Shown here piece after piece: positions 27,371 through 48,454 of a DNA stretch of 64,000 bases (its first letter is position 1; each line of letters begins with the position of its first letter). The notes beneath the pieces were generated by a model. That model was not told where the DNA came from. It searched no databases and worked only from the letters and a program-made list of their open reading frames with translations. A program made the translations under genes and the position numbers. The stretch is from contig DSAB01000119.1 of assembly GCA_011388275.1 (NCBI GenBank), forward strand, positions 41,285-105,284, given 5' to 3'. The stretch comes from a bacterium. GTDB lineage: Bacteria; Zhuqueibacterota; QNDG01; DSAB01.

Positions 27371-28333
27371 TTAGGAGTCGACCGGTTTAAAGAGTACAAT
27401 AAATACAACACGTGGCAGCAGAATGAAACGAAAAAGGAATGACAGGCTTTTTTTCAGGAGATCTGTGGGGCAGAATCGTATAATCGATTCTAAAAGTAAA
27501 AGATAACTTGTATAGATCCTGAAAGATCTCGTTTTGATTTTTATGGGAATAATTCTTTTCAACGGATTGGGCAGCAGAAACACGGTTTCAAGACGTTCGA
27601 ATCCGGCGGGTCCGGCCGCTTTCCGTAAATCGGTGATGCAATACTCCTTTAAATGGAGACCCACATGGCAGCGAACACCCAGGAGGGACTCTATTCCATT
27701 CGGTCCGAATAATGCATGAGGCGTCTTCAAAATGTACCGGCCGCCCTTTTTCAAAATACGTGTCACAGATCGCAGATGGGGCATCAGGTCGTCCGGATGC
27801 AGATGTTCCAGTACATTGCTGGAAATCACCACGTCATATTGATTTTCTTTTTCAAATCGATGCAAATGAACTCCGTCACAAGTGCCGTAATTTAAACGCG
27901 GATGTTTTCGGCTTTGGCTTTCCCCCCTTTCAGCCGTTATATCACATCCCCTGCAATCATGGCCTGTCTCGGCCAATCGAAAAAGAAGATCACCCGTTCC
28001 CGATCCGATTTCATAGATTTTCATCGGAGAAGGCCCGACAAGTTCGATAAATTTATTCTCACGTTCTTTCGAGTCACGCGGACAGGATGTCGCCTCATTG
28101 AGCCAGGGAAGTTCTCGATAAAATCGGGTATAAACGGATCGGGACGTTTCCCAGCGTGTTTCCGGAGAGGATTTTATCAGACGGCGGGCCAGTTCGACCT
28201 CGAGATTCCAGTGTTTTTGGATCATATCGGGATCGATGTGGACATTATCCGGAATATGAAGCAGCTTCCTGTATTTTCTTATGATTTCCCGGCCGGAGAG
28301 ATTATTCAGATATCCTTTTTGATCCATGTTCAT
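27371..28333 (-). CDS. Class I SAM-dependent methyltransferase (last gene of the EPS locus)
   Basis: IYEIGSGTG motif I; YDVVISSNVLEHL; LKKGG.Y. Confidence 0.85.
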   Translation of the reverse strand: MNMDQKGYLNNLSGREIIRKYRKLLHIPDNVHIDPDMIQKHWNLEVELARRLIKSSPETRWETSRSVYTRFYRELPWLNEATSCPRDSKERENKFIELVGPSPMKIYEIGSGTGDLLFRLAETGHDCRGCDITAERGESQSRKHPRLNYGTCDGVHLHRFEKENQYDVVISSNVLEHLHPDDLMPHLRSVTRILKKGGRYILKTPHALFGPNGIESLLGVRCHVGLHLKEYCITDLRKAAGPAGFERLETVFLLPNPLKRIIPIKIKTRSFRIYTSYLLLLESIIRFCPTDLLKKSLSFLFRFILLPRVVFIVLFKPVDS

Positions 28334-28348
28334 CGAATCTTTTCCGTT

Positions 28349-29446
28349 CTAGTTTTCAAACCGATGACCGCAGGACTGAAGGATGAGTCTTTCGTAATTG
28401 AGAGTAATCGAATCCCAGTTGAAAACCTTTTCTGCGAGTCGCCGTCCTCTTCTTCCCATTGCCTGAAGTTCCATATCACTCATTTTCACCATGCGCATCA
28501 GGACCTCACCCAGAGCAGACGGTTGGTGATAAACCATTCCGCATTGATATCGCGTTACAAAATCGGCTGTCTCATCCACATCGGATACCAGCACCGGTTT
28601 TCCCAATGCGATAAACTCCGCGAATTTGGTGGGAAATGCGATCCGCGTGACTCTTGAAGACCTTCGGGGGATTACCAGAATATCCGATTCTTTGAGTCTT
28701 TTCACGAGATCAGCCTGACTCATCCTGTCCGTCAAACACACCCCGTTTCCCAGATCTTTTCGGATTGATGTTTTTGCGGCTGTTTCTTCTTGAGAAAACC
28801 CGATAAATGTGAAAACAACGGACGGTCCCTTCCACATTCTTGCTGCTGCTACCAGATCATTAACCGCTTGATAGGATTGGAATTGTCCTGCATACGTGAT
28901 TTTTCGAACCCGATTAAATCTGTCCGGCCCGGCATTGAATACCGAAAGATTCACTCCGTTTCGGATTATTGATATCCGCTCTTCTTTGATTCCACGGCTC
29001 ATGGTCATATGCTTTAGAGGGCCTGAAACCGCTAAAAAATGATTCGAAAATCCCATGGCTCCCAACTCCTGTGTGAATGCCTTGAGTACCGGCAACGGCC
29101 CCACCTCTTTTCCAAGTCGGCTTTCAGTCTGAATCTCTGCTATTCGGTCGCCATGCATATCATAGAAGACTCGGGCCTGAAAAGGCTTGCATAAATTTGC
29201 CGCGAAAGCGGCTGGCGTACCTCCCGCATGAATAATATGATATCGGTTAAACAGCTGTCTCAAGCGGGATCTGTAAAGAGGCAGCATGGTATGGCTTGTA
29301 TCCGTAAAATCCGACATATAAAAAAAATCACAACGGAATCCCCGGTCCGTCAGCCCCCGGGCAAGAGATTTAAGCCGATGGGTATAAGCGGAATTGTCAT
29401 CCGAAGCGTTTCTTGAAAGAAACAGAATCTTAATTGAACAATTCAT
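28349..29446 (-). CDS. GT4 glycosyltransferase
   Basis: IRNGVNL, SDILVIPR, FPTKFAEFIALGKPVLVSDV. Start set at ATG 29446. Confidence 0.88.
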   Translation of the reverse strand: MNCSIKILFLSRNASDDNSAYTHRLKSLARGLTDRGFRCDFFYMSDFTDTSHTMLPLYRSRLRQLFNRYHIIHAGGTPAAFAANLCKPFQARVFYDMHGDRIAEIQTESRLGKEVGPLPVLKAFTQELGAMGFSNHFLAVSGPLKHMTMSRGIKEERISIIRNGVNLSVFNAGPDRFNRVRKITYAGQFQSYQAVNDLVAAARMWKGPSVVFTFIGFSQEETAAKTSIRKDLGNGVCLTDRMSQADLVKRLKESDILVIPRRSSRVTRIAFPTKFAEFIALGKPVLVSDVDETADFVTRYQCGMVYHQPSALGEVLMRMVKMSDMELQAMGRRGRRLAEKVFNWDSITLNYERLILQSCGHRFEN

Positions 29447-30539
29447 CGGACAGAACCTTTCGTATGATGATCTCGCTGCTGTTCCCGTCGCCAAACGGAT
29501 TTTCCCACTGTCCGTCGCGATCCCACATGATCGAAGACTGTTCAAGTATGTGTTCGGGTTCCGCTCCGGCCAGGGCATTGCTGCCGACCCGAAGGGTCTC
29601 CGGCCTTTCCGTGTTGTCTCTTAAGGTGACGCAAGGACGTTTCAGAATACAAGCCTCTTCCTGAATTCCTCCTGAATCGGTAAGAATCAGACGGCTTTCA
29701 CTCATGAGAAACAGAAAATCCAGATACCCGACAGGCTCAATCAGCCGAATACCCTTCGGACAGTGGATATCAAACGCTTTCAGGCGTTTTCGTGTCCGCG
29801 GATGGACAGGATAAATCACTTCGATCTTCCTGTCTTGAGATACCTTATCAACGCCATTCAGTATGTTCCTGAGTCTGAGAGGGTTATCGACGTTCTCCTG
29901 GCGATGCAATGTCAGGATCATATATCGCCCCGACTCCAGGTTCATCTTCTTGAGATCGCCTCTTTTCCGTGCGATAGGCAGGTTCTGATAAACCGAGTCC
30001 ACGATGGTATTTCCCGTTATGTGGATACGGGAGGGGTCAATACCTTCTTTCCGCAAAATAATCTGAGCTTCCTCAGTGGGTGTAAAAAGCCAGTGACTGA
30101 GATGATCCACGAGAATCCGGTTAATCTCTTCCGGCATGGTTCGGTCATAACTTCGTAATCCGGCCTCTACATGCCCGACCGGAATCATCAACTTTACGGC
30201 TGCCAGACCCCCGGCAAGAACTGTGTTTGTATCGCCCTCTACCAGGACGGCTCCGGGTTTTTTATGTATCAACACAGATTCGATACCTGTGAGTAATCTT
30301 CCGGTCTGGTCACCGTGGTAGCCTGAACCCACATCCAGCTTGACATCAGGATCAGGCAGTTCCAGATCCCTGAAAAAAATTCGATCCATCTCAAACGAAT
30401 AATGCTGTCCGGTATGGACAATACTATATGGTACTTCGTGTTCCATACAGAAGCGAACAATCGGTGCCATCTTGATGATTTCAGGACGGGTACCCACGAC
30501 AACAGCCAGGGGCCGTTCCGGCAAGAGAGTTTTCGTCAT
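29430..30539 (-). CDS. wecB: UDP-N-acetylglucosamine 2-epimerase (non-hydrolysing)
   Basis: GTRPEIIKMAP, HTGQHY, GDTNT, HVEAGLRS, TDSGGIQEEA, TERPE. Confidence 0.96.
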   Translation of the reverse strand: MTKTLLPERPLAVVVGTRPEIIKMAPIVRFCMEHEVPYSIVHTGQHYSFEMDRIFFRDLELPDPDVKLDVGSGYHGDQTGRLLTGIESVLIHKKPGAVLVEGDTNTVLAGGLAAVKLMIPVGHVEAGLRSYDRTMPEEINRILVDHLSHWLFTPTEEAQIILRKEGIDPSRIHITGNTIVDSVYQNLPIARKRGDLKKMNLESGRYMILTLHRQENVDNPLRLRNILNGVDKVSQDRKIEVIYPVHPRTRKRLKAFDIHCPKGIRLIEPVGYLDFLFLMSESRLILTDSGGIQEEACILKRPCVTLRDNTERPETLRVGSNALAGAEPEHILEQSSIMWDRDGQWENPFGDGNSSEIIIRKVLSDELFN

Positions 30540-31702
30540 TACAGGTCCTCTCCCTCGAATATAATGTATGGTTCAGCCAGCATCAGAAAGTCGGCAAAGA
30601 ATTTGGCCGCCCAGTTCGGATACACATAGGGAAGATAATTGCCGTCAATCGGGAATGAGCCGGATATGGCCCCGGATATGAACGGAAAGAGACGACTTTT
30701 TTCCTGAACCTCAATAAGAAATCGGTACAGTCTTCGTATGCTTTTCAGATACCGGTAATCGCCGGTTTGTTCAAATATTTTCAGCCATAATATTCCAATT
30801 TGCGCGTTTCCGGTCAGACAGGTTGATTCTGCGGTTGTATTCCATGCCGAATCCAGGCTTCCCGGAAAAGCTCCGTCTTTTCGCTGGATCAGCATCAGGG
30901 CTTCCGCGGTTTTCAATGCGGCTTCCATCATTCTTTCGTTTTTCAAATGCATGCCCGATTCCCATACCCCCCGTGCCGCGTAAGCGATGGTGTGCGTATA
31001 GACCGACCGTCCTTCCTGGAACGCGTTTTGATGAAACCATCCATCGGGTGACTGCCGGTTCAGAGCCCACTCGATATTTCTGCGCGCACATCGTCTGTAA
31101 ACCGGTTTTGGATGGATGGTATGCAGCTCCAACAGAGACCACGCGACCCGTGTGTGGTAAGAATGTGCCTGATTATTGAATGTATATCGAGTCCATGCAC
31201 CATCCGAATCCTGGATCGAGACGAGCCAGTCGCCGGACCGAATGGCCGCGTCTCTGTATCGTGGATCTCCTGTGACTGAAAAACCCCGAACCCAACCGAA
31301 AATAACCTGGCCCGTATCAAAAACAACCGGATGTCGAGCTCCTTCCATGATTCCGGAAATGGCACCTTCGTCACCTTGTCGGGTCAAAAGCCAGTCAAGC
31401 ATCTGAATGGCCCGGTTCGCATATTGTTCATCGGATACAAAATGTGCATAATCAAAAAATGTGGGCGCGATATATCCCGTAGTTTCAGGAAAGGGAGGCC
31501 TCCATCCGCTGCGCAGGTCATATCCTTCCGACACACCCGATCCATGTATTGCCTGCGCTCTGCACAGCCACAACATGGCCTGTTTCAGAGCTTCATGAAG
31601 ACGAGGCTGTTTCCTGTGCGCGGAACGATGCCGAAATCGTTCCCTTGTCCTCCAAAAAAATAAAGTATTGCGTTTAATCGCACGTTTAAATCGAGCGATC
31701 AT
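30539..31702 (-). CDS. QW-repeat (prenyltransferase/squalene-cyclase-like) alpha/alpha toroid protein, function unknown
   Basis: Repeats RQGDEGAI, IQDSDGAW, RQSPDGWF, IQRKDGAF; PETTGYI motif; coupled to wecB by TAATG. Confidence 0.65.
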   Translation of the reverse strand: MIARFKRAIKRNTLFFWRTRERFRHRSAHRKQPRLHEALKQAMLWLCRAQAIHGSGVSEGYDLRSGWRPPFPETTGYIAPTFFDYAHFVSDEQYANRAIQMLDWLLTRQGDEGAISGIMEGARHPVVFDTGQVIFGWVRGFSVTGDPRYRDAAIRSGDWLVSIQDSDGAWTRYTFNNQAHSYHTRVAWSLLELHTIHPKPVYRRCARRNIEWALNRQSPDGWFHQNAFQEGRSVYTHTIAYAARGVWESGMHLKNERMMEAALKTAEALMLIQRKDGAFPGSLDSAWNTTAESTCLTGNAQIGILWLKIFEQTGDYRYLKSIRRLYRFLIEVQEKSRLFPFISGAISGSFPIDGNYLPYVYPNWAAKFFADFLMLAEPYIIFEGEDL

Positions 31703-32704
31703 TTATCCTCCCTGTTTCATGTCAGCCATCATCCATTTCTCGTTGACGGACTGCACTTTTTTCTCCCAATCACGGGAATGTGCTTCTCTCATGGTCTCCA
31801 TCTGCCGGCTTAATTTTTTCCTGTGTTTCAGGGCTTCCAGTAATTTCTCCGCGATGTCCTCCGCTTCAGGAACCGCATAAAGGGTCCCCTGATAAAAATG
31901 ACTCATCAGATAAGGAAACCGGCTTGTGACCAAAGGTTTCCCCATATACATGGCTTCCATTCCTCCTGACTGCAAAGTAAAGTCTCTGTTGGTCAAAGCC
32001 AGCACCACATCCACACTTTTCAACATAGAGACATATTCTTCATACGGGATAAAATCTGTAAAATACACATTGTCCGGTGCGTTACGGACTCTTCTGCCCT
32101 GGGCCCCGTCGACTCGTCCGGTCACATAAAAGTGGACTTCAGGGAGATTGGAGGCCGCAAGCAGGATTTCATCAAGTGGTTCATCCATAGCGAACGTATT
32201 CACCACCAGAATGGAATTTGATTTTAATCTTTTTTTGCCGGCTTCGGGAAAATCAATCGGAGGGTTCATAATGATGGTTTCTCCTCCCCATGATTCGACC
32301 AAACGAACCAGGTGGTCATTGGTTACAATGGTCAATAATGCCCTTTTACACAGGAATTTATGAAGAAAACGGAACATTGTCCAGGGAAAAGAGATCAATG
32401 ATCCGGTATGTGCGTCTATAACCAGCTTGCAACCGTATAAAGCGCAAAATAAATGGGCTATCCAGGCGCAGAAAAGCGGAGGCGACATGGCCATGACAAG
32501 TCCCGGCCTTTTCTTTCGAAGCACGGCCAGTGTCTTCGCGGCCATCAGCGGATATTTGAACAGAGCCCATTCAGGGCTGCGGTATTTAAAATAGTGAACC
32601 AGGCAAAGTTCCGCATTGAAATGAGACGCGAAACTGTCGGCCCTTCTGTTAAATGGAGCCCATGCCAGGTAAACAGGACGACCATAACGAGATTTCATTT
32701 TCAA
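31703..32704 (-). CDS. GT-B glycosyltransferase (GT4/Alg1-like)
   Basis: NTFAMDEP, FTDFIP..EY, GGMEAMYMGKPLVTS. Confidence 0.8.
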   Translation of the reverse strand: MKMKSRYGRPVYLAWAPFNRRADSFASHFNAELCLVHYFKYRSPEWALFKYPLMAAKTLAVLRKKRPGLVMAMSPPLFCAWIAHLFCALYGCKLVIDAHTGSLISFPWTMFRFLHKFLCKRALLTIVTNDHLVRLVESWGGETIIMNPPIDFPEAGKKRLKSNSILVVNTFAMDEPLDEILLAASNLPEVHFYVTGRVDGAQGRRVRNAPDNVYFTDFIPYEEYVSMLKSVDVVLALTNRDFTLQSGGMEAMYMGKPLVTSRFPYLMSHFYQGTLYAVPEAEDIAEKLLEALKHRKKLSRQMETMREAHSRDWEKKVQSVNEKWMMADMKQGG

Positions 32705-33813
32705 GCCTCCAGTAAAGATTTATAAACTTCCAATACTCGAGAGGCGCAACGTTGCTCCGAATAGAGCCTGCTGATTTTTTTAGCTTCCAGGCCCAATCGA
32801 TGCCGCAGCGTCAAGTTGTTCATGATTTCAATAATGGCTCGACTCAGCGATTTACTGTCTTCGGGTTCCGTCAGGAGGCCGGAGCTACCATGATGAAGCA
32901 TAAAGGGAATATCGCCGACACGTGTGGCCGCGATGGGCAGTCCGGCGGCCATGGCTTCGAGCAGTGTCACAGGCCATCCCTCCCTTCGTGAAGGAAGAAC
33001 GAAAACATCAAAGATCGAATACCAGCCGCTTACCGCATGCTGATATCCCATGAACCGAACGCTCTGATCCAATCCTCTTTTTCTGCAAGTCTTCTCCAGA
33101 TTCTGACGCAGCGGACCGTCTCCGAGAATCACGCAGCGGGAATCCGGAAACACACTTTGCACGAAACCAAAAGCTTCGATCAGTATGTCGTGGCCTTTTT
33201 CCGGACTGAGTCTGCCTACTGTTCCGACAAGTCTCCCCCGTCCCCACTTTCTTATCTCCTTCTGAACAGCAGTTAGAGGTGTTTCTTCATGAGGCTTGAC
33301 GCCATTGGGTATCCAGGTCAGTCGATCCGGCCGCATGCCAGTGCGCTGCAACGAACGGACAATAGGGCGAGAGACCCCGATAACATGGTGCAATTTTCTC
33401 AACGCAAGCAGATCCAGTGCTTCCCAGATGATTACCGGAATTCCGGCATGGGTCCACCCATGTTTTGTCGCCACCACCGGTATGCCGGTTTTTTTCGATA
33501 CGGCCAGTCCGTACAGATCCGCTTTGAATCCATGCGTATGCAGAATTTGAATCTTTTCATGAACCAGGGTTTGGGACAGCGATTGAATGGTTCGGGAATC
33601 CCATCTTCTTGAACAGGGAAAATTGATGAAAGGAATATTGATTCCCCGAGCCGCCTCACTGAATTCCGAAGACGGGGATCGCCGATCATCGATATTGCCG
33701 ATGATGATCTCATTCCCAAATGCATGCAATTGTCGAGTCAGAGACAGAATCACGTGTTCGGCACCGTAATATCCGGAACTCTTTCTCAACATCATAACCC
33801 GAACCGGTTTCAT
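32701..33813 (-). CDS. GT4 glycosyltransferase
   Basis: YGAE, HTHGFKAD, VGRLSPEKG, PSRREGWPVTLLEAMAAGLP. Confidence 0.92.
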   Translation of the reverse strand: MKPVRVMMLRKSSGYYGAEHVILSLTRQLHAFGNEIIIGNIDDRRSPSSEFSEAARGINIPFINFPCSRRWDSRTIQSLSQTLVHEKIQILHTHGFKADLYGLAVSKKTGIPVVATKHGWTHAGIPVIIWEALDLLALRKLHHVIGVSRPIVRSLQRTGMRPDRLTWIPNGVKPHEETPLTAVQKEIRKWGRGRLVGTVGRLSPEKGHDILIEAFGFVQSVFPDSRCVILGDGPLRQNLEKTCRKRGLDQSVRFMGYQHAVSGWYSIFDVFVLPSRREGWPVTLLEAMAAGLPIAATRVGDIPFMLHHGSSGLLTEPEDSKSLSRAIIEIMNNLTLRHRLGLEAKKISRLYSEQRCASRVLEVYKSLLEA

Positions 33814-41006: not shown

Positions 41007-41821
41007 GAATCTCCGGACAGTGAAAATTGTGCCAGAATGGTTTCTCCCGCCCGGACCTTTTGACCTTTTTCCACTGTTAAAGTCAGATGCGGAAAAACCG
41101 GAATGACGATATCCACCTGTGATCCGAATACAATCCTGCCGGTACGCTGTCCTCTGTCGACCGATTCCCCGGCCCGGACATATGATCGGATACGGCGAAC
41201 CAGGCGTGAAGCAATCTGAACAACAGCCACCTGCCATTCTTTATGCTGAATAATTGTTGTGACCCGTTCGTTAAGAAAGACCGATTCCGTTCTTCTCAGA
41301 GACAGAAACGCGCCTGGAATATATTTGACCATGGTCACTCTCCCTGAAAGAGGCGCACGGTTGACATGAACATCCAATATTCTCATCTCAATGCCTATCA
41401 GCCAACCATCCTTTTGGCTGACAGGAGTGTGGACGAGTTCTTCCAGAATATGTTTATCCTTTTTCTTGGTTGCAATCGGGATTTGCCCCTTTCCGATGCG
41501 AACCACATACCGAACGATTCCATCCGCCGGAGAAACAATGATATCGGGTTCACGCGGTGTGGTTCGATTCGGATCCCTATAGAATCGAAACAGGATCACA
41601 GCGCCTATCCAAAAACACTGTAAAACGACGCTCAGTGCCACTATCCCCGTCAAAGTTATATTTGAAATCAGCGGAGAGCACAGATAAACCGTTCCTCCGC
41701 CGAGAAGACCGATCAACATACCGCCTGACGCTCCGATTTTCCAGCCCAAATTGAGTTTAAGAGCCAGTCCTGTGCAGATTACAATCCCTGTTATCAGATT
41801 CCATATCCATGGATTCGACAT
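41003..41821 (-). CDS. psd: Phosphatidylserine decarboxylase-like pyruvoyl enzyme with N-terminal TM helices
   Basis: FYRDPNR, IVSPADG, DVHVNRAP, NER, QIAS..VRRI, FGSQVD self-cleavage site. Start set at ATG 41821. Confidence 0.8.
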   Translation of the reverse strand: MSNPWIWNLITGIVICTGLALKLNLGWKIGASGGMLIGLLGGGTVYLCSPLISNITLTGIVALSVVLQCFWIGAVILFRFYRDPNRTTPREPDIIVSPADGIVRYVVRIGKGQIPIATKKKDKHILEELVHTPVSQKDGWLIGIEMRILDVHVNRAPLSGRVTMVKYIPGAFLSLRRTESVFLNERVTTIIQHKEWQVAVVQIASRLVRRIRSYVRAGESVDRGQRTGRIVFGSQVDIVIPVFPHLTLTVEKGQKVRAGETILAQFSLSGDS

Positions 41822-41822
41822 T

Positions 41823-43085
41823 TTAAAAACCTCTCTTTTTCCATAACGCGGCCAAAAGCAGCCATTCTCCGAAGAATGGAAGCGGATCCCGGAGCGACCA
41901 TACAGCAAACTCCTTTTTCCCCTTCATGGACTGTATGTATTGATTAATCCGCATGCGTCCCCGAAGTATTTCCAGAGCTGCTGTGGGAACATCCGTTGTC
42001 AGTCGTACCCACTTTTCAGCCGGCCTGAAACGAGTTTTGACATGCAATGCCTGACGGCCTGTATTCGGGCGAGAGTCGATAACCAGATCATGATAGACCA
42101 TCCAGGGAAGGTTCACGCCGGCTCCGACAGCCAAACTGTGCCAACCCCAGATTCTGGGGTTGATCTCAAGCATTTTGAATTGCTCATCACGCGGATCCCG
42201 TATGAATTCCACTTCGGCCAGTCCATAATAGTCAATGGACCTTAAAAATTTTTCTGATATTTTCTTCAGAAGGGGAATGTTGACGATCTCGACATAGGTG
42301 CTGGCCTGACCGAAATCCATGGGATGCTGGCGCAGCCTCTGTGCCGTGATACCAGCCACACTTTTTGTGTTCTTGAAAAATGGACAAAAAGAAAACAGAT
42401 TGGCCGCGACATCCGGTATCAACTCTTGAACAATGATTTCACTCGATGGAATAACTGCCGCCGCGGATGCATAGGCCCTTCGAAGTTCATCGCGACTATA
42501 CGCTGGAAAGACTTTCTTTCCCGTTTTCCGGAAAAACGGTCTCATGACCGCCGGCTTGACAACAGCCGGAAACGGTATGTTTGAATCTTCCAAATCATCG
42601 AACGATCCCGGAAAAAAAGTCTGTGGAATCGGGATACCGAGCTTGGCAGCCTGTTTATACGTTTCTCTTTTATCATAAACAAACGCAATGGATGACCAGT
42701 CCGGCGTCATAAGTCGAAAACAGCGGCTCAAAAGCTTGTGATTCCTAGATAAAAAATGAACGCTTTCATCATCCGTCGGATAAATAACAGCACCACGAAG
42801 AAGCGGTTTGTTTCCCCATTCAAGAAAACATTGAAGCGCCTGGGCCTCCATTCGAATATCGGGCATCTTCAGACTGCCGCTTAGGAATCTGGAAAATCGG
42901 GAGAGATTGGGTTCATGATCCGCCACGTAGACCCGAACTCCTTTGCATGCCAAAGCACGAACAGTTCCCAAACCCTGAAAATGTCCGCCAATCACAATGG
43001 CAGGCGCTTTTTCTTGCCGGTTTTTCACAGTATCACTCCCTCTGCGCTCATGCAAAACGGAATCAAAATACGTTCCAGCCGTCAT
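41823..43085 (-). CDS. ATP-grasp carboxylate-amine ligase (D-aspartate ligase-like)
   Basis: LGTVRALA..G, PTDDES, DKRETY, P.VVKP, IVQELIP, EVEFIRD.RD...KMLEINPR.WG. Confidence 0.85.
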   Translation of the reverse strand: MTAGTYFDSVLHERRGSDTVKNRQEKAPAIVIGGHFQGLGTVRALACKGVRVYVADHEPNLSRFSRFLSGSLKMPDIRMEAQALQCFLEWGNKPLLRGAVIYPTDDESVHFLSRNHKLLSRCFRLMTPDWSSIAFVYDKRETYKQAAKLGIPIPQTFFPGSFDDLEDSNIPFPAVVKPAVMRPFFRKTGKKVFPAYSRDELRRAYASAAAVIPSSEIIVQELIPDVAANLFSFCPFFKNTKSVAGITAQRLRQHPMDFGQASTYVEIVNIPLLKKISEKFLRSIDYYGLAEVEFIRDPRDEQFKMLEINPRIWGWHSLAVGAGVNLPWMVYHDLVIDSRPNTGRQALHVKTRFRPAEKWVRLTTDVPTAALEILRGRMRINQYIQSMKGKKEFAVWSLRDPLPFFGEWLLLAALWKKRGF

Positions 43086-45361
43086 TTCCCGGCTTCGATT
43101 TCATCGGAATAGGTCATATAATAGGAGTGATACCCATAGTAAGACTTCGGGTCCATGCCGTTCAGTACGGCCCCCAAAATAGTGGCGTCGACACTGTTCA
43201 GGAGTTCCAGTGAACGTCGAATGAACTGTTTCTTCGTTTCATTGACCCGCACAACCAGGACAACTCCATCCACAAAGGAAGCCAACACGGTTGCATCCGT
43301 TACCGGCAGAAGCGGAGGACTGTCCAGAATGACTATTCCGAAATGTTTTCGGGCTTCGTGTATGAATAACTGCATCTCCCTGGAACAAAGCAGTTCAGAG
43401 GCATTTTTCACCAGGGCTCCGGCCGGCATCAGAAACAGGTTTTTTACCGAAGTTTCGCGTATAACCTCTTTCCAATGCAATGCATGTCCCAGATGATGGG
43501 TCAACCCGTTTTTGCTCTGTGTTCCCAGAAACAGCATGTCGAGTACCGGCCTGCGCAGATCGCTGTCAACCAGCAAAGTTCGTACTCCTTTGTTGGCAAA
43601 AGTAATCGCCAGATTGGCGGATGTTGTGGATTTGCCTTCTGACGCTCCTGCACTGGTGATGAGAATCGCCCGGTTTTTCAATTTATTGTTTGTAAAATAG
43701 ATGGAGGTTCTTATCACCCGATAAGCCTCCGCAATGGATGAATATCCCTGACGATGCGTGAGCAGATGAGAAAAAATATCACGGGCCCGATTCACTTTGG
43801 ATTTCTCGGATCTTTTTGTTTTACCCCGTTTTTTCTCCGAGACGGTTGGAACCGTTCCGATGACACGAATTCCGAATTGGAACAAATCGCTTTCATCGTA
43901 TACCGTGTCCCGTAAATATTCCTGCCCATAGGCGTACCCGAATGCCAGAAGCACGCCGAAAAAACCGGCCAGCAGCAAAGTCAGTTTCTTTTTTGGAAAC
44001 ATCGCTTCACCCGGAGGAGCAGCCAGATCCACAACACGGATGATGTTCATCTGACCCGCCTCCCGGATTCGAGCTTCTTCATATTTTTCACGCAGCATGA
44101 TATACAATTTATTGTTTACCTGAACATCCCGTTCCAGTTTGGCCAGTTCACGGTCTTTATCCGGGATCGATTCCATTCTTTGAGTATATTCCGCCAGAAC
44201 CAGACGCAATTCGTTACGCCTGGCGAGATGGGATTTTTGCAATGTTTCCAGTTCCAGTATCTGTTCCATTAGAGTTTCAGATCGGCTCAGCGGGTTTATA
44301 CCTGCCATTCCTGAATTCACCAGCTTCCGGGTCTCTTCGATCACTCTTTGGTTAATTCCATTGAGACGGTCATCCATCTCTTTCAGCTTAACGTTTTGGC
44401 GTGTATCCAAACCCGCCCCGATGAGCTGAGATTCAAAAGCCGCCCTTCTGTTCATCAGTTCCGCACGTTCGTTTCTCAATCTGGACAATTCCGGTGTAGA
44501 CAATCGGCTCACATTCTCCACCAATGACCTTTGATTCTCGTCCAATTGAGCCTTTAAAAACGCGAGCTGTGTATCAACGGCTTCCAGATCGGTTTTCGTC
44601 TGTTTATAGACAGTTTCAAATTCGCTGATACGTTGAACAAGCTGTTCTGTTTCACTGTTCAGGGATACCACGCCATGAAATTTCTTGAAATTGGTCAATC
44701 GGGCTTCCGCTTCGGCGAGTTGGTGTTCCATTTCCATGAGTTTCTCTTCCAGAAACATCCTGGTTTTATTGACCTGGCCTTGCGTATCCGAGCGATGATA
44801 ATCCTGATAAGCCTGGATCCAGGCATTTACAATGACCGCCGCTTCCCAGGGTCTGGAAGCGACAGCACGCAATTCAACGATATCCGTATCGCGGCCGTAA
44901 ATGACTTTGGTTTGTGACTGAAAATCAGCACCCGCTTCCTGAAGTGTCAAAGGGCCTGAAGGTTGTTTTTCTTTTTTTCTGATACCCAGCCGGTTTCCAA
45001 TGCCTTCAGTCTTCTCCTGATCATTGCCCGCCCCCAAAATCACCAGCGAGTCCGCATAGGGGGATTCCTGCAAACGGTGAATGACATCCAGCGCCAGACT
45101 GTGACTCTGCAAAATAGCGACTTGATTCTTGATGAGATTTTTCTGAAAAAAAACATTTGGAAAATCAAAAATTTGTCCATGGAGGTCACCCTCCTGAATA
45201 GAAAGAGATGCCGAAGCCTGATAGACGGGCTTTGCGACTGTCAGAAAGATCACGGTAAGTGTAATAACCGCGATAAAAGTAATGATCGCCCCTTTCCCGT
45301 GTATTTTGAGAGGGCGAAACACTTCACCCAGGTCAGCCGTTTGTCTTTGTTTTTCATTCAT
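43082..45361 (-). CDS. wzc: Wzc polysaccharide co-polymerase / tyrosine autokinase
   Basis: Two TM helices flanking a coiled-coil periplasmic region; EAYRVIRT, TSAGASEGKST, VDSDLRRP, DSPP; C-terminal Tyr cluster YYGYHSYYMTY. Confidence 0.93.
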   Translation of the reverse strand: MNEKQRQTADLGEVFRPLKIHGKGAIITFIAVITLTVIFLTVAKPVYQASASLSIQEGDLHGQIFDFPNVFFQKNLIKNQVAILQSHSLALDVIHRLQESPYADSLVILGAGNDQEKTEGIGNRLGIRKKEKQPSGPLTLQEAGADFQSQTKVIYGRDTDIVELRAVASRPWEAAVIVNAWIQAYQDYHRSDTQGQVNKTRMFLEEKLMEMEHQLAEAEARLTNFKKFHGVVSLNSETEQLVQRISEFETVYKQTKTDLEAVDTQLAFLKAQLDENQRSLVENVSRLSTPELSRLRNERAELMNRRAAFESQLIGAGLDTRQNVKLKEMDDRLNGINQRVIEETRKLVNSGMAGINPLSRSETLMEQILELETLQKSHLARRNELRLVLAEYTQRMESIPDKDRELAKLERDVQVNNKLYIMLREKYEEARIREAGQMNIIRVVDLAAPPGEAMFPKKKLTLLLAGFFGVLLAFGYAYGQEYLRDTVYDESDLFQFGIRVIGTVPTVSEKKRGKTKRSEKSKVNRARDIFSHLLTHRQGYSSIAEAYRVIRTSIYFTNNKLKNRAILITSAGASEGKSTTSANLAITFANKGVRTLLVDSDLRRPVLDMLFLGTQSKNGLTHHLGHALHWKEVIRETSVKNLFLMPAGALVKNASELLCSREMQLFIHEARKHFGIVILDSPPLLPVTDATVLASFVDGVVLVVRVNETKKQFIRRSLELLNSVDATILGAVLNGMDPKSYYGYHSYYMTYSDEIEAGK

Positions 45362-46628
45362 GATAACGCCTTATAAAATCCCAAATTGTAACACCATCAA
45401 TGTCTCCGGTAACTGCCAGACAGCATTTTCGATTCTCAGGCCATCGCCAAATTCTCATCAGCGGACCTTGAACCGGCAAAGAGTAATCACCTGATAAGTC
45501 CCTTTTCAGTTTCATCTCGTCGGAAGGAAGCAGTACTGTGCTGTACTGCCGATGATTCATTAATTCATATGGATACCCTTCCTGCCTCATCCATGCTGTT
45601 ATATCCTGAGAGCAACCTGGATCGATTCCAACGATCGGATGCTCCTTTCCCGAGAATTTCCATGGAGTTCCTTGAACCGTAAAGTTTCCAGGCCCATCAC
45701 ATGTGTAACCTTTCGTTCCTTTGACCAGAAGAGTGGCCCGGCTGCTTCCCTCCAGGCAAATCTCCTTTATCCCCGAATCACTCTCTCTGATAATGAATTG
45801 AACGGAATCCCGTTCAATCCACCATTCTGCGATTTCCTGAAGAGATGCGATCCAGACATTTTCACTTTGAGCTTTTCGCAAAATCGTTTCCAAAGCGCGG
45901 TTGAATTGAAAATACCGTTCGGGATGCAGCTGCAGCACAAGACATTCTCCTGTCTGACAGGCCCGTTCCAGCATTCGGCTCCATACAGCTGCCAGTACTT
46001 CCTGTTTTCGTATTCCCAACCTTTCGATCAGAATATCGTCATCGGGCATAGCAACCGGTATTTCCACCATCTCCCCGATGAACCGAGGCAGGGATGCCGA
46101 ACCCGAATCCATCGGTTGATATGTTTCCAGAATGGTTTGAAAATTTTTCCAGCGGCTGCGTGAACATTTTCTTGAGGACAGGTTTTCCCAAAGAATGACT
46201 TCACTGCTGTCCCATCGGAAGCCCGCTTCCGCCAGCCATTCAATTCTGTGTTTGTCACGTCTCAAATAAGGGAATCTAAATCCTTCACACGGATAACCGG
46301 CTTTATTGAAAAGGGCCATCGCTTCCTGAAAATGCGACGCGTTCTGAGTACGATCCATCATTGTATAATCCACGTGCCGTAACCCATGGATCGCCAAAAC
46401 AGCCCCCTGCTTCATCAACCTTTGAAAAAGGGACGGATTTTTATCCAGCACAACGGCTGTGGTCGGAAATGTCGGTTTGGCCTGATAGCGTTCCATTAGA
46501 TCCATAAATTGAATGACCGATCGGCTGAATCGTCTTTTTCCCAATCCGTATCGGTACAATATGGAAAAAACACGCCCCAGGTTATTTGCAAACGATCTCG
46601 TACTCAGGCGTTTGACCAATTGCTCCAT
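45354..46628 (-). CDS. CE4/NodB-fold polysaccharide deacetylase-like protein, apparently circularly permuted
   Basis: PTFPTTA, LAIHGLRH, GFRFPYL, EIPV, LHPE near the N-terminus; the motif-1-like WPENRKCCLAVTGDID is at the extreme C-terminus. Confidence 0.72.
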   Translation of the reverse strand: MEQLVKRLSTRSFANNLGRVFSILYRYGLGKRRFSRSVIQFMDLMERYQAKPTFPTTAVVLDKNPSLFQRLMKQGAVLAIHGLRHVDYTMMDRTQNASHFQEAMALFNKAGYPCEGFRFPYLRRDKHRIEWLAEAGFRWDSSEVILWENLSSRKCSRSRWKNFQTILETYQPMDSGSASLPRFIGEMVEIPVAMPDDDILIERLGIRKQEVLAAVWSRMLERACQTGECLVLQLHPERYFQFNRALETILRKAQSENVWIASLQEIAEWWIERDSVQFIIRESDSGIKEICLEGSSRATLLVKGTKGYTCDGPGNFTVQGTPWKFSGKEHPIVGIDPGCSQDITAWMRQEGYPYELMNHRQYSTVLLPSDEMKLKRDLSGDYSLPVQGPLMRIWRWPENRKCCLAVTGDIDGVTIWDFIRRYHE

Positions 46629-46653: not shown

Positions 46654-47640
46654 TTATATGGAATGGTATCCCATCGCCAATGCCCTGACTTTCTTGCCGT
46701 TTATACCTCTCAGCCAATCATGCGTCATGACCAGTCCTTTCTGCATATTGGTCGTTGGAGCCCATCGCAGCATGCGTCTTATCTTTTCAATGTTCAGAAC
46801 TCTTCTACGGATATTATCAATATCCCGCTTATCGACATACACGGGATCGGCCTTATATTGAGCAATTTTCATCATAGTTGAAGACAAATCATAGATACTC
46901 GTCTCTTTTCCCGAACTGACATTAAAAACCTCTCCGACCGCTTTGGGACTTAATGCGGCCAGCAAGGTGGCTTCCACCACATCGGAAACGTAGGTGAAAT
47001 CCCGAGTCTGATCACCGTCGCCGTGAATATGCGGCGGCTGGCCTTGCAAAATCCAGTCGAAAAATTTTGAAATGACCCCGCAATATGGGTTTTGAGGAGA
47101 TTGATTGATTCCATAAACATTTGAAAACCGCATGACAACCGTGGGCACTCCATATGATTCATAAAATGCCGAACAAAAATTTTCTCCCGAAAGCTTGCTG
47201 GCCGCATATGGGCTGAGTGTACTGATACGATCATCTTCATTGATGGGCAAGTATTTCGGATTTCCATACACCGAAGCGGAAGAGGAATACACAACGCGCT
47301 CGACACCGTATTTTTTCGCGGCCAGAAGCACTGTAAACGTTCCGCCTGAATTGACCTTGAAATCCAGCAAAGGCGATACGGTTGACACAATGATATTTCG
47401 GACCGCCAGATGAAAAACAATATCGGCCCTTTTCACCAGTCGATCGACCAATTGCGCGTTGGTTACAGTACCCTCTATAAAATTGATGTACTTCAGGCAG
47501 TCGATATTCTCTTTTTGTCCTGTAAGCAAATCGTCGAGGACGGTCACATCCGCCCCTTCTTTGACCAGCGCGGACACCAGGTTTGATCCGATGAATCCAG
47601 CCCCCCCGGTCACCAGGATTCTCTTATTACGAAAACGCAT
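46654..47640 (-). CDS. NAD-dependent nucleotide-sugar epimerase/dehydratase (extended SDR)
   Basis: TGGAGFIGS, SSASVYG, YAASK, RFSNVYG, RDFTYV.D. Confidence 0.93.
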   Translation of the reverse strand: MRFRNKRILVTGGAGFIGSNLVSALVKEGADVTVLDDLLTGQKENIDCLKYINFIEGTVTNAQLVDRLVKRADIVFHLAVRNIIVSTVSPLLDFKVNSGGTFTVLLAAKKYGVERVVYSSSASVYGNPKYLPINEDDRISTLSPYAASKLSGENFCSAFYESYGVPTVVMRFSNVYGINQSPQNPYCGVISKFFDWILQGQPPHIHGDGDQTRDFTYVSDVVEATLLAALSPKAVGEVFNVSSGKETSIYDLSSTMMKIAQYKADPVYVDKRDIDNIRRRVLNIEKIRRMLRWAPTTNMQKGLVMTHDWLRGINGKKVRALAMGYHSI

Positions 47641-47680
47641 CAGACAACCTCTTCATTTAATGAATTGTTTGATCTCATTC

Positions 47681-48454
47681 TCAATACACATCCCTCATGG
47701 ACAAGACATAAGGAATGGTCATTAAAATAATTTTTAAATCCAGCAGCAAATTCCAATGGTCAACATACCAGAGATCATAAAGGATGGATTCTTCGTAATT
47801 CTCCGGTGTCAGTCTGAGATTGATTTTGGACCAACCGGTCAGCCCCGGCTTGACTTCAAGTCTGCGGAAATACCAGGGCTTATAGGCCTGTACCTCATAT
47901 ACCGGATGAGGTCTGGGTCCTACAAGACTCATCCGTCCGCTTAAAATATTGATCATCTGCGGCAATTCATCCAAACTGGTTGCACGCAAAAGCGCACCAA
48001 CAGGGGTCACGTATGATTGTACATGGTTGATGTACCGTTCCAATAAATCCGGCTTCGATTCCGCTCCGATTCCTTCATGCAATAGATACCGAATATAGGC
48101 TTTGTGGTCTTTCTGCGAATCTGTATGAAACATGGTGCGGAACTTATAAATTAAAAAAGATCTTCCTCTGAGTCCAACCCGCTCCTGTCGAAAGAATACC
48201 GGGCCCGGTGAACTCAACTTGACAGTGGTTGAAACCAGAAGCAGCAAAGGCCATGCTGCCAGCAAAAAAAACATTGAGAAAGAAAAATCCATCAAACGTT
48301 TGACTCCCAATAGAAAACCGGCAAAACTCTTTTCCTGTAAGCTATCGGCAGAATGAGGTGTTTCATCCATGATCTGGCTGAATGAAATCCCCCGTGTATA
48401 ATCCATTGCCGGCAATGATTCAGTTCGCATAGCGTAAAACCGTTCTCCATTCAA
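47681..48454 (-). CDS. Initiating polyprenyl-phosphate sugar-1-phosphate transferase (monotopic PGT)
   Basis: KRLMD, FFRQERVG..G..F.IYKFRTM, LDELPQ..N..G.MSLVGPRP, KPGLTGW, DLWYV. Confidence 0.93.
   Translation of the reverse strand: MNGERFYAMRTESLPAMDYTRGISFSQIMDETPHSADSLQEKSFAGFLLGVKRLMDFSFSMFFLLAAWPLLLLVSTTVKLSSPGPVFFRQERVGLRGRSFLIYKFRTMFHTDSQKDHKAYIRYLLHEGIGAESKPDLLERYINHVQSYVTPVGALLRATSLDELPQMINILSGRMSLVGPRPHPVYEVQAYKPWYFRRLEVKPGLTGWSKINLRLTPENYEESILYDLWYVDHWNLLLDLKIILMTIPYVLSMRDVY

Follow-up and report, generated by a model that had tools for sequence, protein, structure and literature searches.

In the Arn pathway, ArnA carries a formyltransferase domain and ArnD is a CE4 deformylase that acts on a lipid-linked amino sugar. 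In the D-Asp cross-bridge of peptidoglycan, AslA ligates beta-aspartyl-phosphate to an amine on an intracellular glycan precursor, after which AsnH modifies the alpha-carboxyl left free (PMC4155827). In the HS:2 capsule of Campylobacter jejuni, the decarboxylase Cj1436 and the C-terminal ATP-grasp amidoligase of Cj1438 provide the capsule with an amide-linked amino-alcohol or amine (PMC11800379).

The locus compared here with these systems lies in a window of 64,000 nucleotides (the whole stretch of DNA that was analysed) on the chromosome of an uncultured KSB1-like bacterium. As a Wzx/Wzy/Wzc operon for a secreted polysaccharide it is unusually rich in tailoring genes; among their products, an ATP-grasp ligase is paired with a phosphatidylserine decarboxylase (PSD)-family protein (Psd-like). 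The likeness to the D-Asp cross-bridge (AslA/Aslfm, AsnH) lies in the ATP-grasp enzyme and, in the pathway proposed here, in attachment through a side-chain carboxyl followed by modification of the alpha-carboxyl; in addition, related loci with the pair carry FemAB-like genes, the alternative route of that system, and asparagine-synthase genes. However, the cross-bridge enzymes target the stem peptide and amidate the alpha-carboxyl, whereas here the target would be an exopolysaccharide unit and a PSD-family enzyme would remove the alpha-carboxyl. The HS:2 system also decorates a surface polysaccharide by means of a decarboxylase and an ATP-grasp ligase, but its ligase is a TupA-like ATP-grasp fused to GT2 and acts on a GlcA carboxylate. 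The HS:2 decarboxylase is PLP-dependent and uses a substrate in solution, and export of the capsule depends on an ABC transporter; the window system differs in fold subfamily, cofactor type, membrane anchoring and export route.

E. coli Psd (6L06/7CNW) and PsiD share with Psd-like the fold and the Asp/His/Gly-Ser self-processing pyruvoyl machinery. The identity is 18-20%, however, and Psd-like has three true TM helices and, unlike both, is paired and sometimes fused with ATP-grasp in polysaccharide loci. With the Arn pathway, the locus has in common the presence of formyltransferase and CE4 enzymes within one amino-sugar pathway, but no ArnB, ArnC or ArnT homologues occur here, and the ArnA model scores 42 bits against a cutoff of 777. 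The gene set of XrtA/PEP-CTERM loci (TIGR03006 deacetylase, TIGR03019 FemAB, EpsI asparagine synthase) is found in many loci with the pair, and these families are the best NCBIfam matches of the long CE4-like protein and the GT4s of the window, all under the cutoffs.

Organization of the operon

Eighteen co-directional ORFs on the minus strand, to which all operon coordinates below refer, run from 48454 to 27371, and an ORF check found every one of them. With corrected starts, 14 of the 17 junctions overlap or span no more than 4 nt, and the largest gap is 40 nt. This bears out the tightly packed 18-gene operon of the initial annotation, whose gene-by-gene domain list agrees with the Pfam assignments throughout. 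The Psd-like start was corrected to 41821 (272 aa), the same start as called in an independent assembly, and that of the formyltransferase to 41003/41006 (255-256 aa). The start of the last GT4 gene was moved from 29578 to 29446, probably its true position; from the ATG there, the protein has a typical GT4 N-terminus and the gene overlaps wecB by 17 nt.

Thirteen nucleotides upstream of the first of these genes lies a gene for an atypical OmpR-family response regulator (48468..49160, minus strand; Trans_reg_C, E 3.7e-27), whose receiver domain scores 23.6 bits, under the Pfam cutoff of 30.2. Because this gene is syntenic in relatives (loci L007-L011 and L061, 52-57% identity), it is probably the 19th, leading gene of the operon, which accordingly counts 18–19 genes. 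Farther upstream, across a 480-nt non-coding gap, lies cdsA. At the other end, the class I methyltransferase gene is the last of the operon and is separated from the next gene by 149 nt.

Polysaccharide machinery

The small polyprenyl-phosphate glycosyl-1-phosphate transferase (initiating PGT; 47681..48454; Bac_transf, E 5e-59) scores 250 bits against EPS_sugtrans TIGR03025, under the cutoff, and is 61-69% identical in sister loci. It is followed by an SDR nucleotide-sugar epimerase/dehydratase (46654..47640; Epimerase PF01370, E 1.8e-57), for which no NCBIfam equivalog was matched at cutoff and whose identity in sister loci is 63-76%. The Wzc-type co-polymerase with BY-kinase (43082..45361; Wzz, GNVR and AAA_31 domains) scores 182.8 bits against TIGR01007, over the cutoff of 108, and carries the C-terminal Tyr cluster SYYGYHSYYMTY. 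The Wzy-type polymerase (35266..36705; Wzy_C, E 8e-17) and the Wzx flippase (33818..35269; Polysacc_synt, E 3.5e-34) are encoded side by side. Glycosyl transfer is represented by a GT4 enzyme at 37592..38791 (Glycos_transf_1, Glyco_trans_4_4), with homologues in 31 loci at 34-44% identity, by two further GT4 enzymes at 32701..33813 (Glycos_transf_1, E 6e-38) and 28349..29446 (Glycos_transf_1, E 1.3e-13), and by a divergent GT4-like enzyme at 31703..32704 (Glycos_transf_1, E 3e-10). WecB, a non-hydrolysing UDP-GlcNAc 2-epimerase (29430..30539), matches TIGR00236 with 412.6 bits against a cutoff of 210. With PGT, GTs, Wzx, Wzy and Wzc identified, the earlier assignment to a Wzx/Wzy operon with a large tailoring cassette is upheld. 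No Wza/OPX exporter was found in any part of the window, and the window has no exosortase gene.

Tailoring genes

The genes for ATP-grasp, Psd-like, formyltransferase and radical SAM enzyme are contiguous (43085-38795), and none of the tailoring genes matches a curated NCBIfam model at its cutoff. The ATP-grasp ligase (41823..43085) belongs to a large uncharacterised family with a core of about 389 aa and approximately 2,900 clusters (50% identity) at E<=1e-30; it gives weak ATPgrasp_Ter and CPSase_L_D2 matches, and no NCBIfam model was matched at cutoff. Its AF2 model (pLDDT 85.8) has the generic ATP-grasp fold and resembles solved structures only generically. The residues K177, E291/E293 and E307-x-N309-x-R311 are invariant, and judged by the ATP/Mg residues, which are kept, the enzyme looks active. 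The JGI label 'D-aspartate ligase' hints at a possible kinship to AslA/Aslfm. Elsewhere the family is fused to Psd-like, CE4 (P0445, P0498), FemAB-like (in both orders) and GT4 domains. GNAT and formyltransferase are further neighbours or fusion partners that act on amines, and one Lys/Orn N-monooxygenase fusion also occurs in this group.

Psd-like is a membrane-anchored PSD-family pyruvoyl decarboxylase (41003..41821; PS_Dcarbxylase, E 7e-44) that falls under the cutoff of every NCBIfam PSD equivalog. Its AF2 model combines three N-terminal TM helices with the PSD fold; among PDB entries, the model matches E. coli PSD (6l06/7cnw) best and PsiD (8x4q) next, and PsiD is also a weak match in sequence. 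D100 is nearly invariant, and H152 and G233-S234 are invariant; with the Asp/His/Gly-Ser autoprocessing set and the modelled PSD fold kept, the enzyme looks active. The order of the PSD and ATP-grasp domains in the single-chain fusions P0387 and P0436 implies a decarboxylase domain on the cytoplasmic side, where ATP is available.

The stand-alone formyltransferase domain protein (40236..41006; Formyl_trans_N, E 1.8e-20) keeps the catalytic Asn-His (NAHPGWLP) and Asp (DAGIDTG) residues, by which it looks active. It lacks the Fmt C-terminal domain, and a genuine Fmt is encoded separately at 8484-9482. The B12-binding radical SAM enzyme (38795..40246; B12-binding, E 4e-18; Radical_SAM, E 2e-25) contains the cluster motif CPLQCIFC, and its best NCBIfam match is HpnJ (157 bits, cutoff 577); it is present in 40 of 80 loci, with 47-63% identity across phyla.

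Two CE4-type proteins are encoded outside this block. The long CE4-like deacetylase (CE4L; 45354..46628), predicted to be cytoplasmic, matches Polysacc_deac_1 (E 1.7e-9) over residues 40-138 only; the motifs HGLRH and RFPY are conserved in 32 homologues, and PDDD and the C-terminal TGDIDG are conserved, while the canonical N-terminal DD is missing. In 26 of 58 loci the ATP-grasp gene directly follows a homologue of CE4L; about half of the loci lack CE4L. The canonical, PgaB/IcaB-like CE4 deacetylase (36702..37595; Polysacc_deac_1, E 4e-18) has an N-terminal hydrophobic segment and all of the motifs TFDDG, HTMTH and RYFAYPY. The (alpha/alpha)6-toroid protein (30539..31702; weak Pec_lyase, SQHop_cyclase_C and GH88 matches) has no homologue in the 80 loci, several of which contain a different GH88-like toroid family; earlier counted as a tailoring enzyme, it is possibly, and equally likely, a glycanase or lyase. 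The class I SAM methyltransferase (27371..28333; Methyltransf_11/12/25 matches) lacks a homologue in related loci.

Recurrence in other genomes

Related MAGs share the order CdsA-RR-PGT-SDR-CE4-Wzc-ATPgrasp-Psd-FT-rSAM-GT4. The four-gene block, which the initial annotation had singled out, thus recurs there in equal order as a real unit, and in most other genomes sampled its core sits with polysaccharide genes, so this check of co-occurrence does not count against the initial proposal. As a conserved unit, however, only part of the block stands: the ATP-grasp/Psd-like pair holds, often with CE4L just upstream and B12-rSAM downstream, whereas the formyltransferase is lineage-restricted, with homologues in 10 of 58 loci, mainly in the sister clade. 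The operon also varies in its 3' half.

Of the 80 loci with the ATP-grasp anchor, 69 also have a Psd-like gene, and in 57 of 75 testable GTDB species-level genomes from >12 phyla such a gene lies directly downstream of ATP-grasp, mostly in polysaccharide loci. In the reverse check, ATP-grasp was directly upstream in three of four independent Psd-like matches, all four of which sit among glycosyltransferase genes. This reciprocal adjacency holds with or without cdsA, and the two genes behave as one unit. Among the 35 fully flanked loci, 28 contain GT/PGT/Wzc/Wza/Wzx/Wzy genes, 26 contain CE4 or DegT genes, 13 contain the GFO/DegT/hexapeptide trio, and only 6 contain UGDH. FemAB-like aminoacyl transferase genes neighbour the pair in 22 loci, and asparagine-synthase genes accompany it in 10. 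The CE4L adjacency, the ATP-grasp-CE4 fusions and the excess of CE4/DegT over UGDH link the pair to sugar amines.

Proposed pathway and alternatives

The domains and their catalytic residues, the order of the genes, their co-occurrence across phyla and the fused proteins are direct observations. The full explanation that fits them best, with a probability of roughly 0.4, is ligase–decarboxylase tailoring of a lipid-linked repeat unit inside the Wzx/Wzy operon. A heteropolysaccharide would be made by the Wzx/Wzy route with the small PGT, four GT4s, WecB (ManNAc), SDR, Wzx, Wzy and Wzc, and the tailoring module would modify the repeat unit while this is still lipid-linked, on the cytoplasmic side of the membrane. 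Once CE4L has stripped an N-acetyl group and exposed a sugar amine, the ATP-grasp ligase would acylate this amine, using the side-chain carboxyl of an acidic amino acid; the closest precedent, that of the peptidoglycan D-Asp ligase AslA/Aslfm, is aspartate via beta-aspartyl-phosphate. Both alpha groups, the amino and the carboxyl, would stay free, resulting in a group shaped like the phosphoserine head group. The three-TM pyruvoyl enzyme would then remove the alpha-carboxyl, leaving a 3-aminopropanoyl (beta-alanyl-type) side arm with a terminal primary amine. Finally, the formyltransferase would N-formylate this amine, and the B12-rSAM enzyme would make a further change, most likely a C-methylation, while the canonical CE4 and the class I methyltransferase would act elsewhere on the polymer. 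By analogy with the Arn pathway, it is a possibility that the formyl group is transient protection and that the second CE4 takes it off afterwards.

What we infer is which substrates and which amino acid are used, in what order the steps follow and what chemistry the radical SAM enzyme carries out. Since pyruvoyl decarboxylases, by their established mechanism, require both the alpha-amine and the alpha-carboxyl to be free, ligation before decarboxylation fits side-chain attachment only. The original proposal of aminoacylation followed by decarboxylation therefore survives in this form, but an amide at the alpha-amine or alpha-carboxyl would block the decarboxylase. The zwitterionic polymer proposed alongside it is unsupported: there is no gene for an acidic sugar, and a formylated amine would be neutral. 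Counting against the pathway are the generic nature of the likeness between the ATP-grasp ligase and solved structures, the lack of any PSD-family enzyme known to use a glycan-bound substrate, the missing N-terminal Asp-Asp of CE4L and its absence from about half of the loci, the lack in the operon of an aspartate racemase or other amino-acid supply gene, and the fact that the formyltransferase and rSAM are not universal partners.

An alternative that we consider doubtful places decarboxylation first: Psd-like would make an amine from a free or phosphorylated amino acid, and ATP-grasp would join it to a uronic-acid carboxylate, following the logic of the ethanolamine/serinol amide of glucuronic acid in the C. 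jejuni HS:2 capsule. The GFO/DegT/hexapeptide trio usually works on uronic-acid sugars, and its presence in many loci, with UGDH in a few, points to such sugars in some of them, so a carboxylate acceptor is still conceivable. PSD-family enzymes can use free amino acids, as PsiD, an L-Trp decarboxylase and the next-best structural match, illustrates, and Cj1438C is a documented case of an ATP-grasp amidoligase whose target is the C6 carboxylate of GlcA (PMC11800379). However, a decarboxylase of soluble substrates would need neither three TM helices nor fusion to a ligase, no sugar 6-dehydrogenase turned up across the window, the window ligase has no TupA-like ATP-grasp Pfam match, and the ATP-grasp-CE4 fusions and CE4 adjacency indicate an amine rather than a carboxylate acceptor. 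The same fusions and adjacency are left unexplained if ATP-grasp esterifies a sugar carboxylate with the hydroxyl of serine, so that Psd-like decarboxylates an acyl analogue of phosphatidylserine; the aminoethyl ester would rearrange to an ethanolamine amide or stay a cationic ester. This is quite improbable, as the window lacks a uronic-acid gene and no precedent is known from glycan chemistry, although some ATP-grasp enzymes (microviridin-type ligases) do form esters, O-acyl-serine comes chemically closest to what PSD acts on in nature, and the membrane anchor and fusions fit equally well as in the side-chain amide pathway.

It is very unlikely that the product of the block is a small molecule or modified lipid of its own and that co-transcription is the block's only tie to the polysaccharide genes. 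Seven of the 35 fully flanked loci, mostly from Chloroflexota, have no recognised core polysaccharide gene among the labelled families, and in Entotheonella and some Pirellulales the pair has PKS genes at its flanks. These seven, however, carry CE4L, FemAB-like or UGDH genes amid many unannotated ORFs, the other 28 carry polysaccharide genes, an ATP-grasp-GT4 fusion exists, and in the window the block lies between wzc and a GT4 gene with overlapping stop and start codons. The least probable reading takes Psd-like as an ordinary phosphatidylserine decarboxylase, supplying phosphatidylethanolamine for the membrane or as phosphoethanolamine donor, with an independent ATP-grasp. It draws on the full PSD catalytic set and fold and on cdsA (CDP-diacylglycerol for phosphatidylserine) just upstream, here and in the sister clade; yet Psd-like misses all the PSD equivalog cutoffs, its adjacency to ATP-grasp across phyla is independent of cdsA, covalent fusions to ATP-grasp exist, and neither a phosphatidylserine synthase nor an EptA-type phosphoethanolamine transferase is present in the operon or window.

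Paper searches found no description of the ATP-grasp/Psd-like pairing. The combination that had not been recognised at the outset is indeed uncharacterised, but it is not rare in nature. The system as such is of a known kind, whereas its tailoring module is widespread and undescribed; for the ATP-grasp/Psd-like pair, common among environmental bacteria, no description was found in the papers and curated family models searched.

Organization and genomic setting of the operon

Between positions 48454 and 27371, 18 open reading frames follow one another, every one on the minus strand, and Pfam scans of these frames reproduced the gene-by-gene domain list of the initial annotation. In transcription order, they encode a small polyprenyl-phosphate glycosyl-1-phosphate transferase (PGT, 47681-48454; Bac_transf, E = 5e-59), an SDR epimerase/dehydratase, a long CE4-like protein (CE4L, 45354-46628), Wzc (Wzz, GNVR and AAA_31 domains), an ATP-grasp protein (41823-43085), a PS_Dcarbxylase-family protein (Psd-like, 41003-41821; E = 7e-44), a Formyl_trans_N protein, a B12-binding radical SAM protein (rSAM), a GT4 glycosyltransferase, a canonical CE4 protein (36702-37595), the Wzy polymerase (Wzy_C, E = 8e-17), the Wzx flippase (Polysacc_synt, E = 3.5e-34), a second GT4 glycosyltransferase, a GT4-like protein, an (alpha/alpha)6-toroid protein, WecB, a last GT4 and a class I methyltransferase. 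The start of the Psd-like gene was corrected to 41821 (272 aa), which is the gene call of an independent assembly, and that of the formyltransferase to 41003/41006; the true start of the last GT4 is probably 29446. With these starts, 14 of the 17 junctions overlap or span at most 4 nt, and the widest gap is 40 nt. The 18 frames, their matching domains and the tight junctions thus confirm the operon as it was first described.

Overall, this is a Wzx/Wzy/Wzc heteropolysaccharide locus of the ordinary kind: its 5' half is conserved, whereas the glycosyltransferase half varies. Wzc, a PCP-2a co-polymerase with a BY-kinase, scores 182.8 bits against TIGR01007 (cutoff 108) and carries a tyrosine cluster at its C-terminus. 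No match to the Wza/OPX exporter (Poly_export) was found among the frames scanned across the window, and Wza, which is present in 12 related loci (12/80; 10/35 among loci flanked by 5 kb or more on each side), may be encoded elsewhere in the genome. The scanned frames likewise contain no exosortase, and the matches to TIGR03006, TIGR03088 and TIGR04063 all lie far under their cutoffs; these are the marks by which the XrtA/PEP-CTERM exopolysaccharide system would be recognised.

An OmpR-family regulator (48468-49160, minus strand) lies 13 nt upstream of PGT and is conserved beside it in the sister clade. A 480-nt non-coding stretch precedes the regulator, and its synteny is kept in relatives; the operon probably begins with this gene. 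Its receiver domain is degenerate, falling under the Pfam cutoff, with 'DR' at the usual position of the acidic pair. The regulator may control the operon independently of phosphorylation.

The flanks on both sides consist of housekeeping genes. Upstream are cdsA, an outer-membrane protein, Fe-S and DUF362 proteins, ClpC, a MacB-type ABC pair, LysS and prfB; downstream are a PorV/PorQ-family barrel, YicC, Gmk, RpoZ, CoaBC, UDG, DnaB, SpoT and Lnt, followed by RuvX, BamD, Mla, RadA, Tgt, a genuine Fmt and RsmB. The cdsA gene (phosphatidate cytidylyltransferase, 49641-50471, minus strand) stands just upstream of the operon and occupies the same position in the related loci L001, L008-L011 and L061. 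The closest named relatives of LysS belong to candidate division KSB1 (62-63% identity), the others being unclassified 'bacterium' MAGs, and the window is accordingly assigned to an uncultured lineage close to KSB1. A horizontal transfer island was considered and rejected: GC content is even across the region (0.46-0.50, compared with 0.42-0.49 in the immediately flanking genes), the flanks are housekeeping genes, and relatives share the synteny between cdsA and the 5' half of the operon. The operon is chromosomal and does not stand out as an island. A tRNA scan of the window found no tRNA genes, an Rfam search over 26000-50600 returned no riboswitch or other RNA (the sole match was at chance level), and promoter and terminator scans at both ends of the operon did not rise above shuffled sequence.

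Two of the flanking genes deserve a separate description. Directly 3' of the operon, a minus-strand gene (26184-27221) encodes a 345-aa PorV/PorQ-family outer-membrane barrel with a signal peptide. It scores 92.8 bits against NCBIfam NF033709 (cutoff 90), which suggests a type IX secretion system in the lineage, and no homologue was found in the related polysaccharide loci. The prfB gene (release factor 2, 60088-61240, minus strand) has the canonical N-terminal +1 frameshift site, and a further in-frame TAA at 60311-60309 replaces the expected Tyr codon (…KILLSRL*QKKKEEE…), the frame being intact to the normal C-terminus. Readthrough, a recent mutation or an error of sequencing could each account for this TAA.

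The ATP-grasp ligase and the Psd-like decarboxylase

The predicted AF2 structure of the ATP-grasp protein (pLDDT 85.8) has the ATP-grasp fold, and the ATP/Mg residues K177, E291/E293, E307, N309 and R311 are invariant. Foldseek matched the model to CPS, biotin carboxylase, PylC and Ddl at E values of about 1e-15, and also to PurK. These neighbours are generic only (TM 0.5-0.6, at most 17% identity) and therefore give no clue to the substrate; a profile search of the PDB likewise returned only distant carboxylases and CPS. The family has a core of about 389 aa that is 45-56% identical across phyla, and it comprises about 2,900 clusters (50% identity) at E<=1e-30 among 1.84 billion representatives.

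The Psd-like protein scores 150.3 bits against PF02666 (cutoff 22). Its model (pLDDT 85.5) consists of three N-terminal transmembrane helices followed by the PSD fold, and Foldseek gives a probability of 1.0 to 6l06/7cnw; the top structural matches are E. coli PSD and then the tryptophan decarboxylase PsiD. The single sequence found no match in the PDB, and a profile retrieved E. coli PSD at 2e-5. Among 27 and 70 homologues, the residues of self-cleavage are retained: D100 (PADG) is nearly invariant, H152 (DVHVNR) and G233-S234 are invariant, and all align with the motifs of E. coli PSD. Given this conserved Asp/His/Gly-Ser set, self-processing to a pyruvoyl enzyme is expected.

The formyltransferase, radical SAM and CE4 proteins

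The formyltransferase (Formyl_trans_N, 73.9 bits against a cutoff of 26.1) keeps the catalytic Asn, His and Asp, as read from its sequence (NAHPGWLP, DAGIDTG). It falls under the cutoffs of all named subfamilies, namely Fmt (69 vs 201), PurN (66 vs 150), dTDP-sugar formyltransferase (48.7 vs 238) and ArnA, and it lacks the Formyl_trans_C domain found at the C-terminus of Fmt; the genuine Fmt of the window is at 8484-9482. In the rSAM protein, the B12-binding and Radical_SAM domains both exceed their Pfam cutoffs, and the CxxxCxxC motif reads CPLQCIFC. It can be assigned to no characterised subfamily (HpnJ, BchE, P- or C-methyltransferases), the best match, to HpnJ, scoring 157 bits (cutoff 577).

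The two CE4 proteins differ in their motifs. The short one has the full canonical set (TFDDG, HTMTH, RYFAYPY). In CE4L and 32 homologues (L001-L082), HGLRH and RFPY are conserved and the N-terminal Asp-Asp is absent; PDDD is conserved in the middle of the protein, and an invariant TGDIDG-like motif lies at the extreme C-terminus. Judging from these motifs, PDDD and the C-terminal TGDIDG may replace the missing Asp-Asp, a pattern that would fit a circularly permuted CE4 barrel.

Conservation of the gene pair and its neighbourhood

A scan in which each GTDB species was represented by a single genome yielded 80 loci, every one of them from a MAG. They span Chloroflexota/Dehalococcoidia, Planctomycetota, Geobacteraceae, Syntrophales, Ignavibacteria, Kiritimatiellia, Actinomycetota, Entotheonella, KSB1, Aminicenantes, Zhuqueibacterota and further groups. 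Their neighbourhoods were compared by tblastn with the window proteins and, separately, by independent clustering of all open reading frames of the loci; clustering counts are given over the 80 loci with an ATP-grasp anchor and over the 35 flanked by 5 kb or more on each side.

Among 75 testable species genomes, tblastn showed the pair of ATP-grasp ligase and Psd-like decarboxylase in 57, with the Psd-like gene directly downstream of the ATP-grasp gene; the pair spans more than 12 phyla, mostly uncultured. By clustering, a Psd-like gene is present in 69/80 and 28/35 loci. By tblastn, the rSAM gene, 47-63% identical, lies within 5 kb downstream in 24 of 51 cases and upstream in 4 of 53 (40/80; 20/35), CE4L within 3.5 kb upstream in 26 of 58 (32/80; 16/35), and the formyltransferase within 4 kb downstream in 10 of 58 (12/80; 6/35). 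Clustering further recovered GT4 (38/80; 18/35), Wzc-like (27/80; 14/35), PGT (26/80; 14/35), hexapeptide acyltransferase (25/80; 13/35), FemAB-like (Acetyltransf_6; 22/80; 15/35), GFO/WbpB-like (21/80; 13/35), DegT aminotransferase (19/80; 10/35) and asparagine synthase genes (10/80; 6/35). The FemAB-like gene usually sits directly 5' of the ligase gene.

In the sister clade (L001, L005, L007-L011, L061), the gene order of the window is kept from cdsA through the regulator, PGT, SDR, CE4L, Wzc, ATP-grasp, Psd-like, formyltransferase and rSAM to GT4; the 3' half of the operon is not shared, and tblastn found no homologue of the toroid protein or the methyltransferase in any of the related loci.

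Several partners of the pair are absent from the window and recur elsewhere (L002, L014-L018, L021, L031, L041, L046, L063-L066, L072-L074, L081, L083 and others). They include a 323-aa family of unassigned function in 26 loci, whose CE4-like match is very weak; a 377-aa WbuX-like N-acetyl-sugar amidotransferase (182 bits, cutoff 203); in Dehalococcoidia, an uncharacterised 239-aa protein encoded between CE4L and the ligase; and, in some loci, GNAT genes directly 3' of the decarboxylase. In locus L087, the Psd-like gene has no called ligase gene upstream and is surrounded by fragmentary GT4 genes, possibly reflecting a decayed locus or an error-rich assembly.

Domain fusions of the ligase family

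Fusions were sought among representatives of the ATP-grasp family. Single chains join ATP-grasp to PSD (P0387, P0436), to CE4 (P0445, P0498), to a FemAB-like domain in either order (P0466, P0471), to GT4 (P0481) and to a Lys/Orn-type flavin N-monooxygenase (P0398), and tandem ATP-grasp domains also occur (P0394, P0456). These fusions tie the ligase functionally to a decarboxylase, a deacetylase, an aminoacyl transferase and a glycosyltransferase. Where PSD comes first in the fused chain, the order implies a decarboxylase domain that faces the ATP side of the membrane. Two further representatives, P0379 and P0467, are very long (1589 and 1699 aa), with the ligase domain internal.

Proposed mechanism and alternatives

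In the substrate of a pyruvoyl decarboxylase, both the alpha-carboxyl and the alpha-amine, which forms the Schiff base, have to be free. This excludes any amino acid held in an amide through either group; therefore, if ligation precedes decarboxylation, the amino acid must be attached by its side chain. In a beta-linked aspartyl amide, the spacing equals that of the phosphoserine head group. The chemistry implied by the initial annotation, a seryl amide that is then decarboxylated, was rejected on grounds of mechanism, because an amide at the alpha-amine or alpha-carboxyl consumes a group needed by the pyruvoyl enzyme.

Based on the results presented here, the following pathway is proposed, with a probability of roughly 0.4 and with substrates and order that we infer. 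CE4L would bare a sugar amine on the lipid-linked unit, to which the ATP-grasp ligase would attach Asp (or Glu) through the side chain. The membrane-anchored Psd-like protein would strip the alpha-carboxyl, leaving a beta-alanyl-type arm; the formyltransferase would cap the new amine, and the rSAM protein would probably C-methylate. This model draws on the adjacency of CE4 genes and the CE4 fusions, on the excess of amine-supplying genes over UGDH (26/35 vs 6/35 loci), on the amine-acting neighbours (GNAT, FemAB-like) at the formyltransferase position in other loci, and on the membrane anchor of the Psd-like protein. Peptidoglycan synthesis offers the best precedent for side-chain attachment in its D-aspartate ligase AslA/Aslfm, an ATP-grasp enzyme whose beta-aspartyl-phosphate acylates the amine of an intracellular glycan precursor, after which the asparagine synthase AsnH modifies the free alpha-carboxyl that remains (PMC4155827). 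At the sequence level, the pointer to AslA/Aslfm is the JGI automatic label 'D-aspartate ligase' on homologues.

The reverse order, in which decarboxylation comes first and the product is then joined as an amide to a uronic acid, has a model in the C. jejuni HS:2 capsule (PMC11800379). The Campylobacter ligase (Cj1438C) is of the TupA type, whereas the window ligase is not: Pfam (E<=0.01) detected no TupA-like domain in it and matched only ATPgrasp_Ter, CPSase_L_D2 and ATP-grasp_3. Scans of the open reading frames found no sugar 6-dehydrogenase in the window, and we judge this order unlikely. An ester-forming variant using serine appears quite improbable.

Two alternatives remain. That the Psd-like protein is an ordinary phosphatidylserine decarboxylase would suit its fold and self-cleavage motifs; it falls under every NCBIfam PSD equivalog cutoff (163.9 vs 183, 158.9 vs 230 and 154.5 vs 225), as well as that of the archaeosortase-linked NF038088 (127.5 vs 240), and this reading is highly implausible. 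That the product of the four-gene block (43085-38795) is unrelated to polysaccharide is only marginally easier to accept. At least one recognised core polysaccharide gene is present in 28 of the 35 loci that extend 5 kb or more each way, and in a reverse test with four Psd-like homologues on independent long contigs, all four sit among glycosyltransferase genes, three with ATP-grasp directly upstream. The initial annotation would have been refuted had the four-gene block not co-occurred with polysaccharide genes in other genomes; this is therefore not the case, since the pair at the core of the block does recur with them. The 'zwitterionic' polymer that the same annotation proposed is unsupported.

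Implications

None of the tailoring genes, among them those for the ligase, decarboxylase, formyltransferase and rSAM protein, reaches the cutoff of a curated NCBIfam model, and literature searches turned up no account of ATP-grasp and PSD enzymes paired in glycan synthesis. The tailoring module thus differs from the rest of the operon in being out of the ordinary. The cassette had been called unusual; this holds in that the module is uncharacterised and fails in that it is not rare, and since the pair is common in environmental genomes, the word should be read as 'uncharacterised'.

More tentatively than the five-step pathway, we consider it possible that a pyruvoyl decarboxylase of the PSD family was taken over from lipid head groups for use on glycans and, together with a dedicated ATP-grasp ligase, creates a terminal amine arm, a new and widespread class of decoration. 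A side-chain-linked amino acid on a lipid-linked sugar would become, for example, an N-(3-aminopropanoyl) group, here N-formylated and C-methylated, by a logic that may resemble that of peptidoglycan cross-bridges. Surface polysaccharides govern bacterial adhesion, flocs and biofilms, phage resistance and host interaction, and most of their unknown enzymology concerns their chemical decorations. If the proposal is true, the PSD family would gain a third substrate class, glycan-bound amino acids, besides lipids and tryptophan; a new amine-bearing glycan substituent would be defined; and an annotation rule would follow for thousands of 'phosphatidylserine decarboxylase' genes that probably do not act on lipids.
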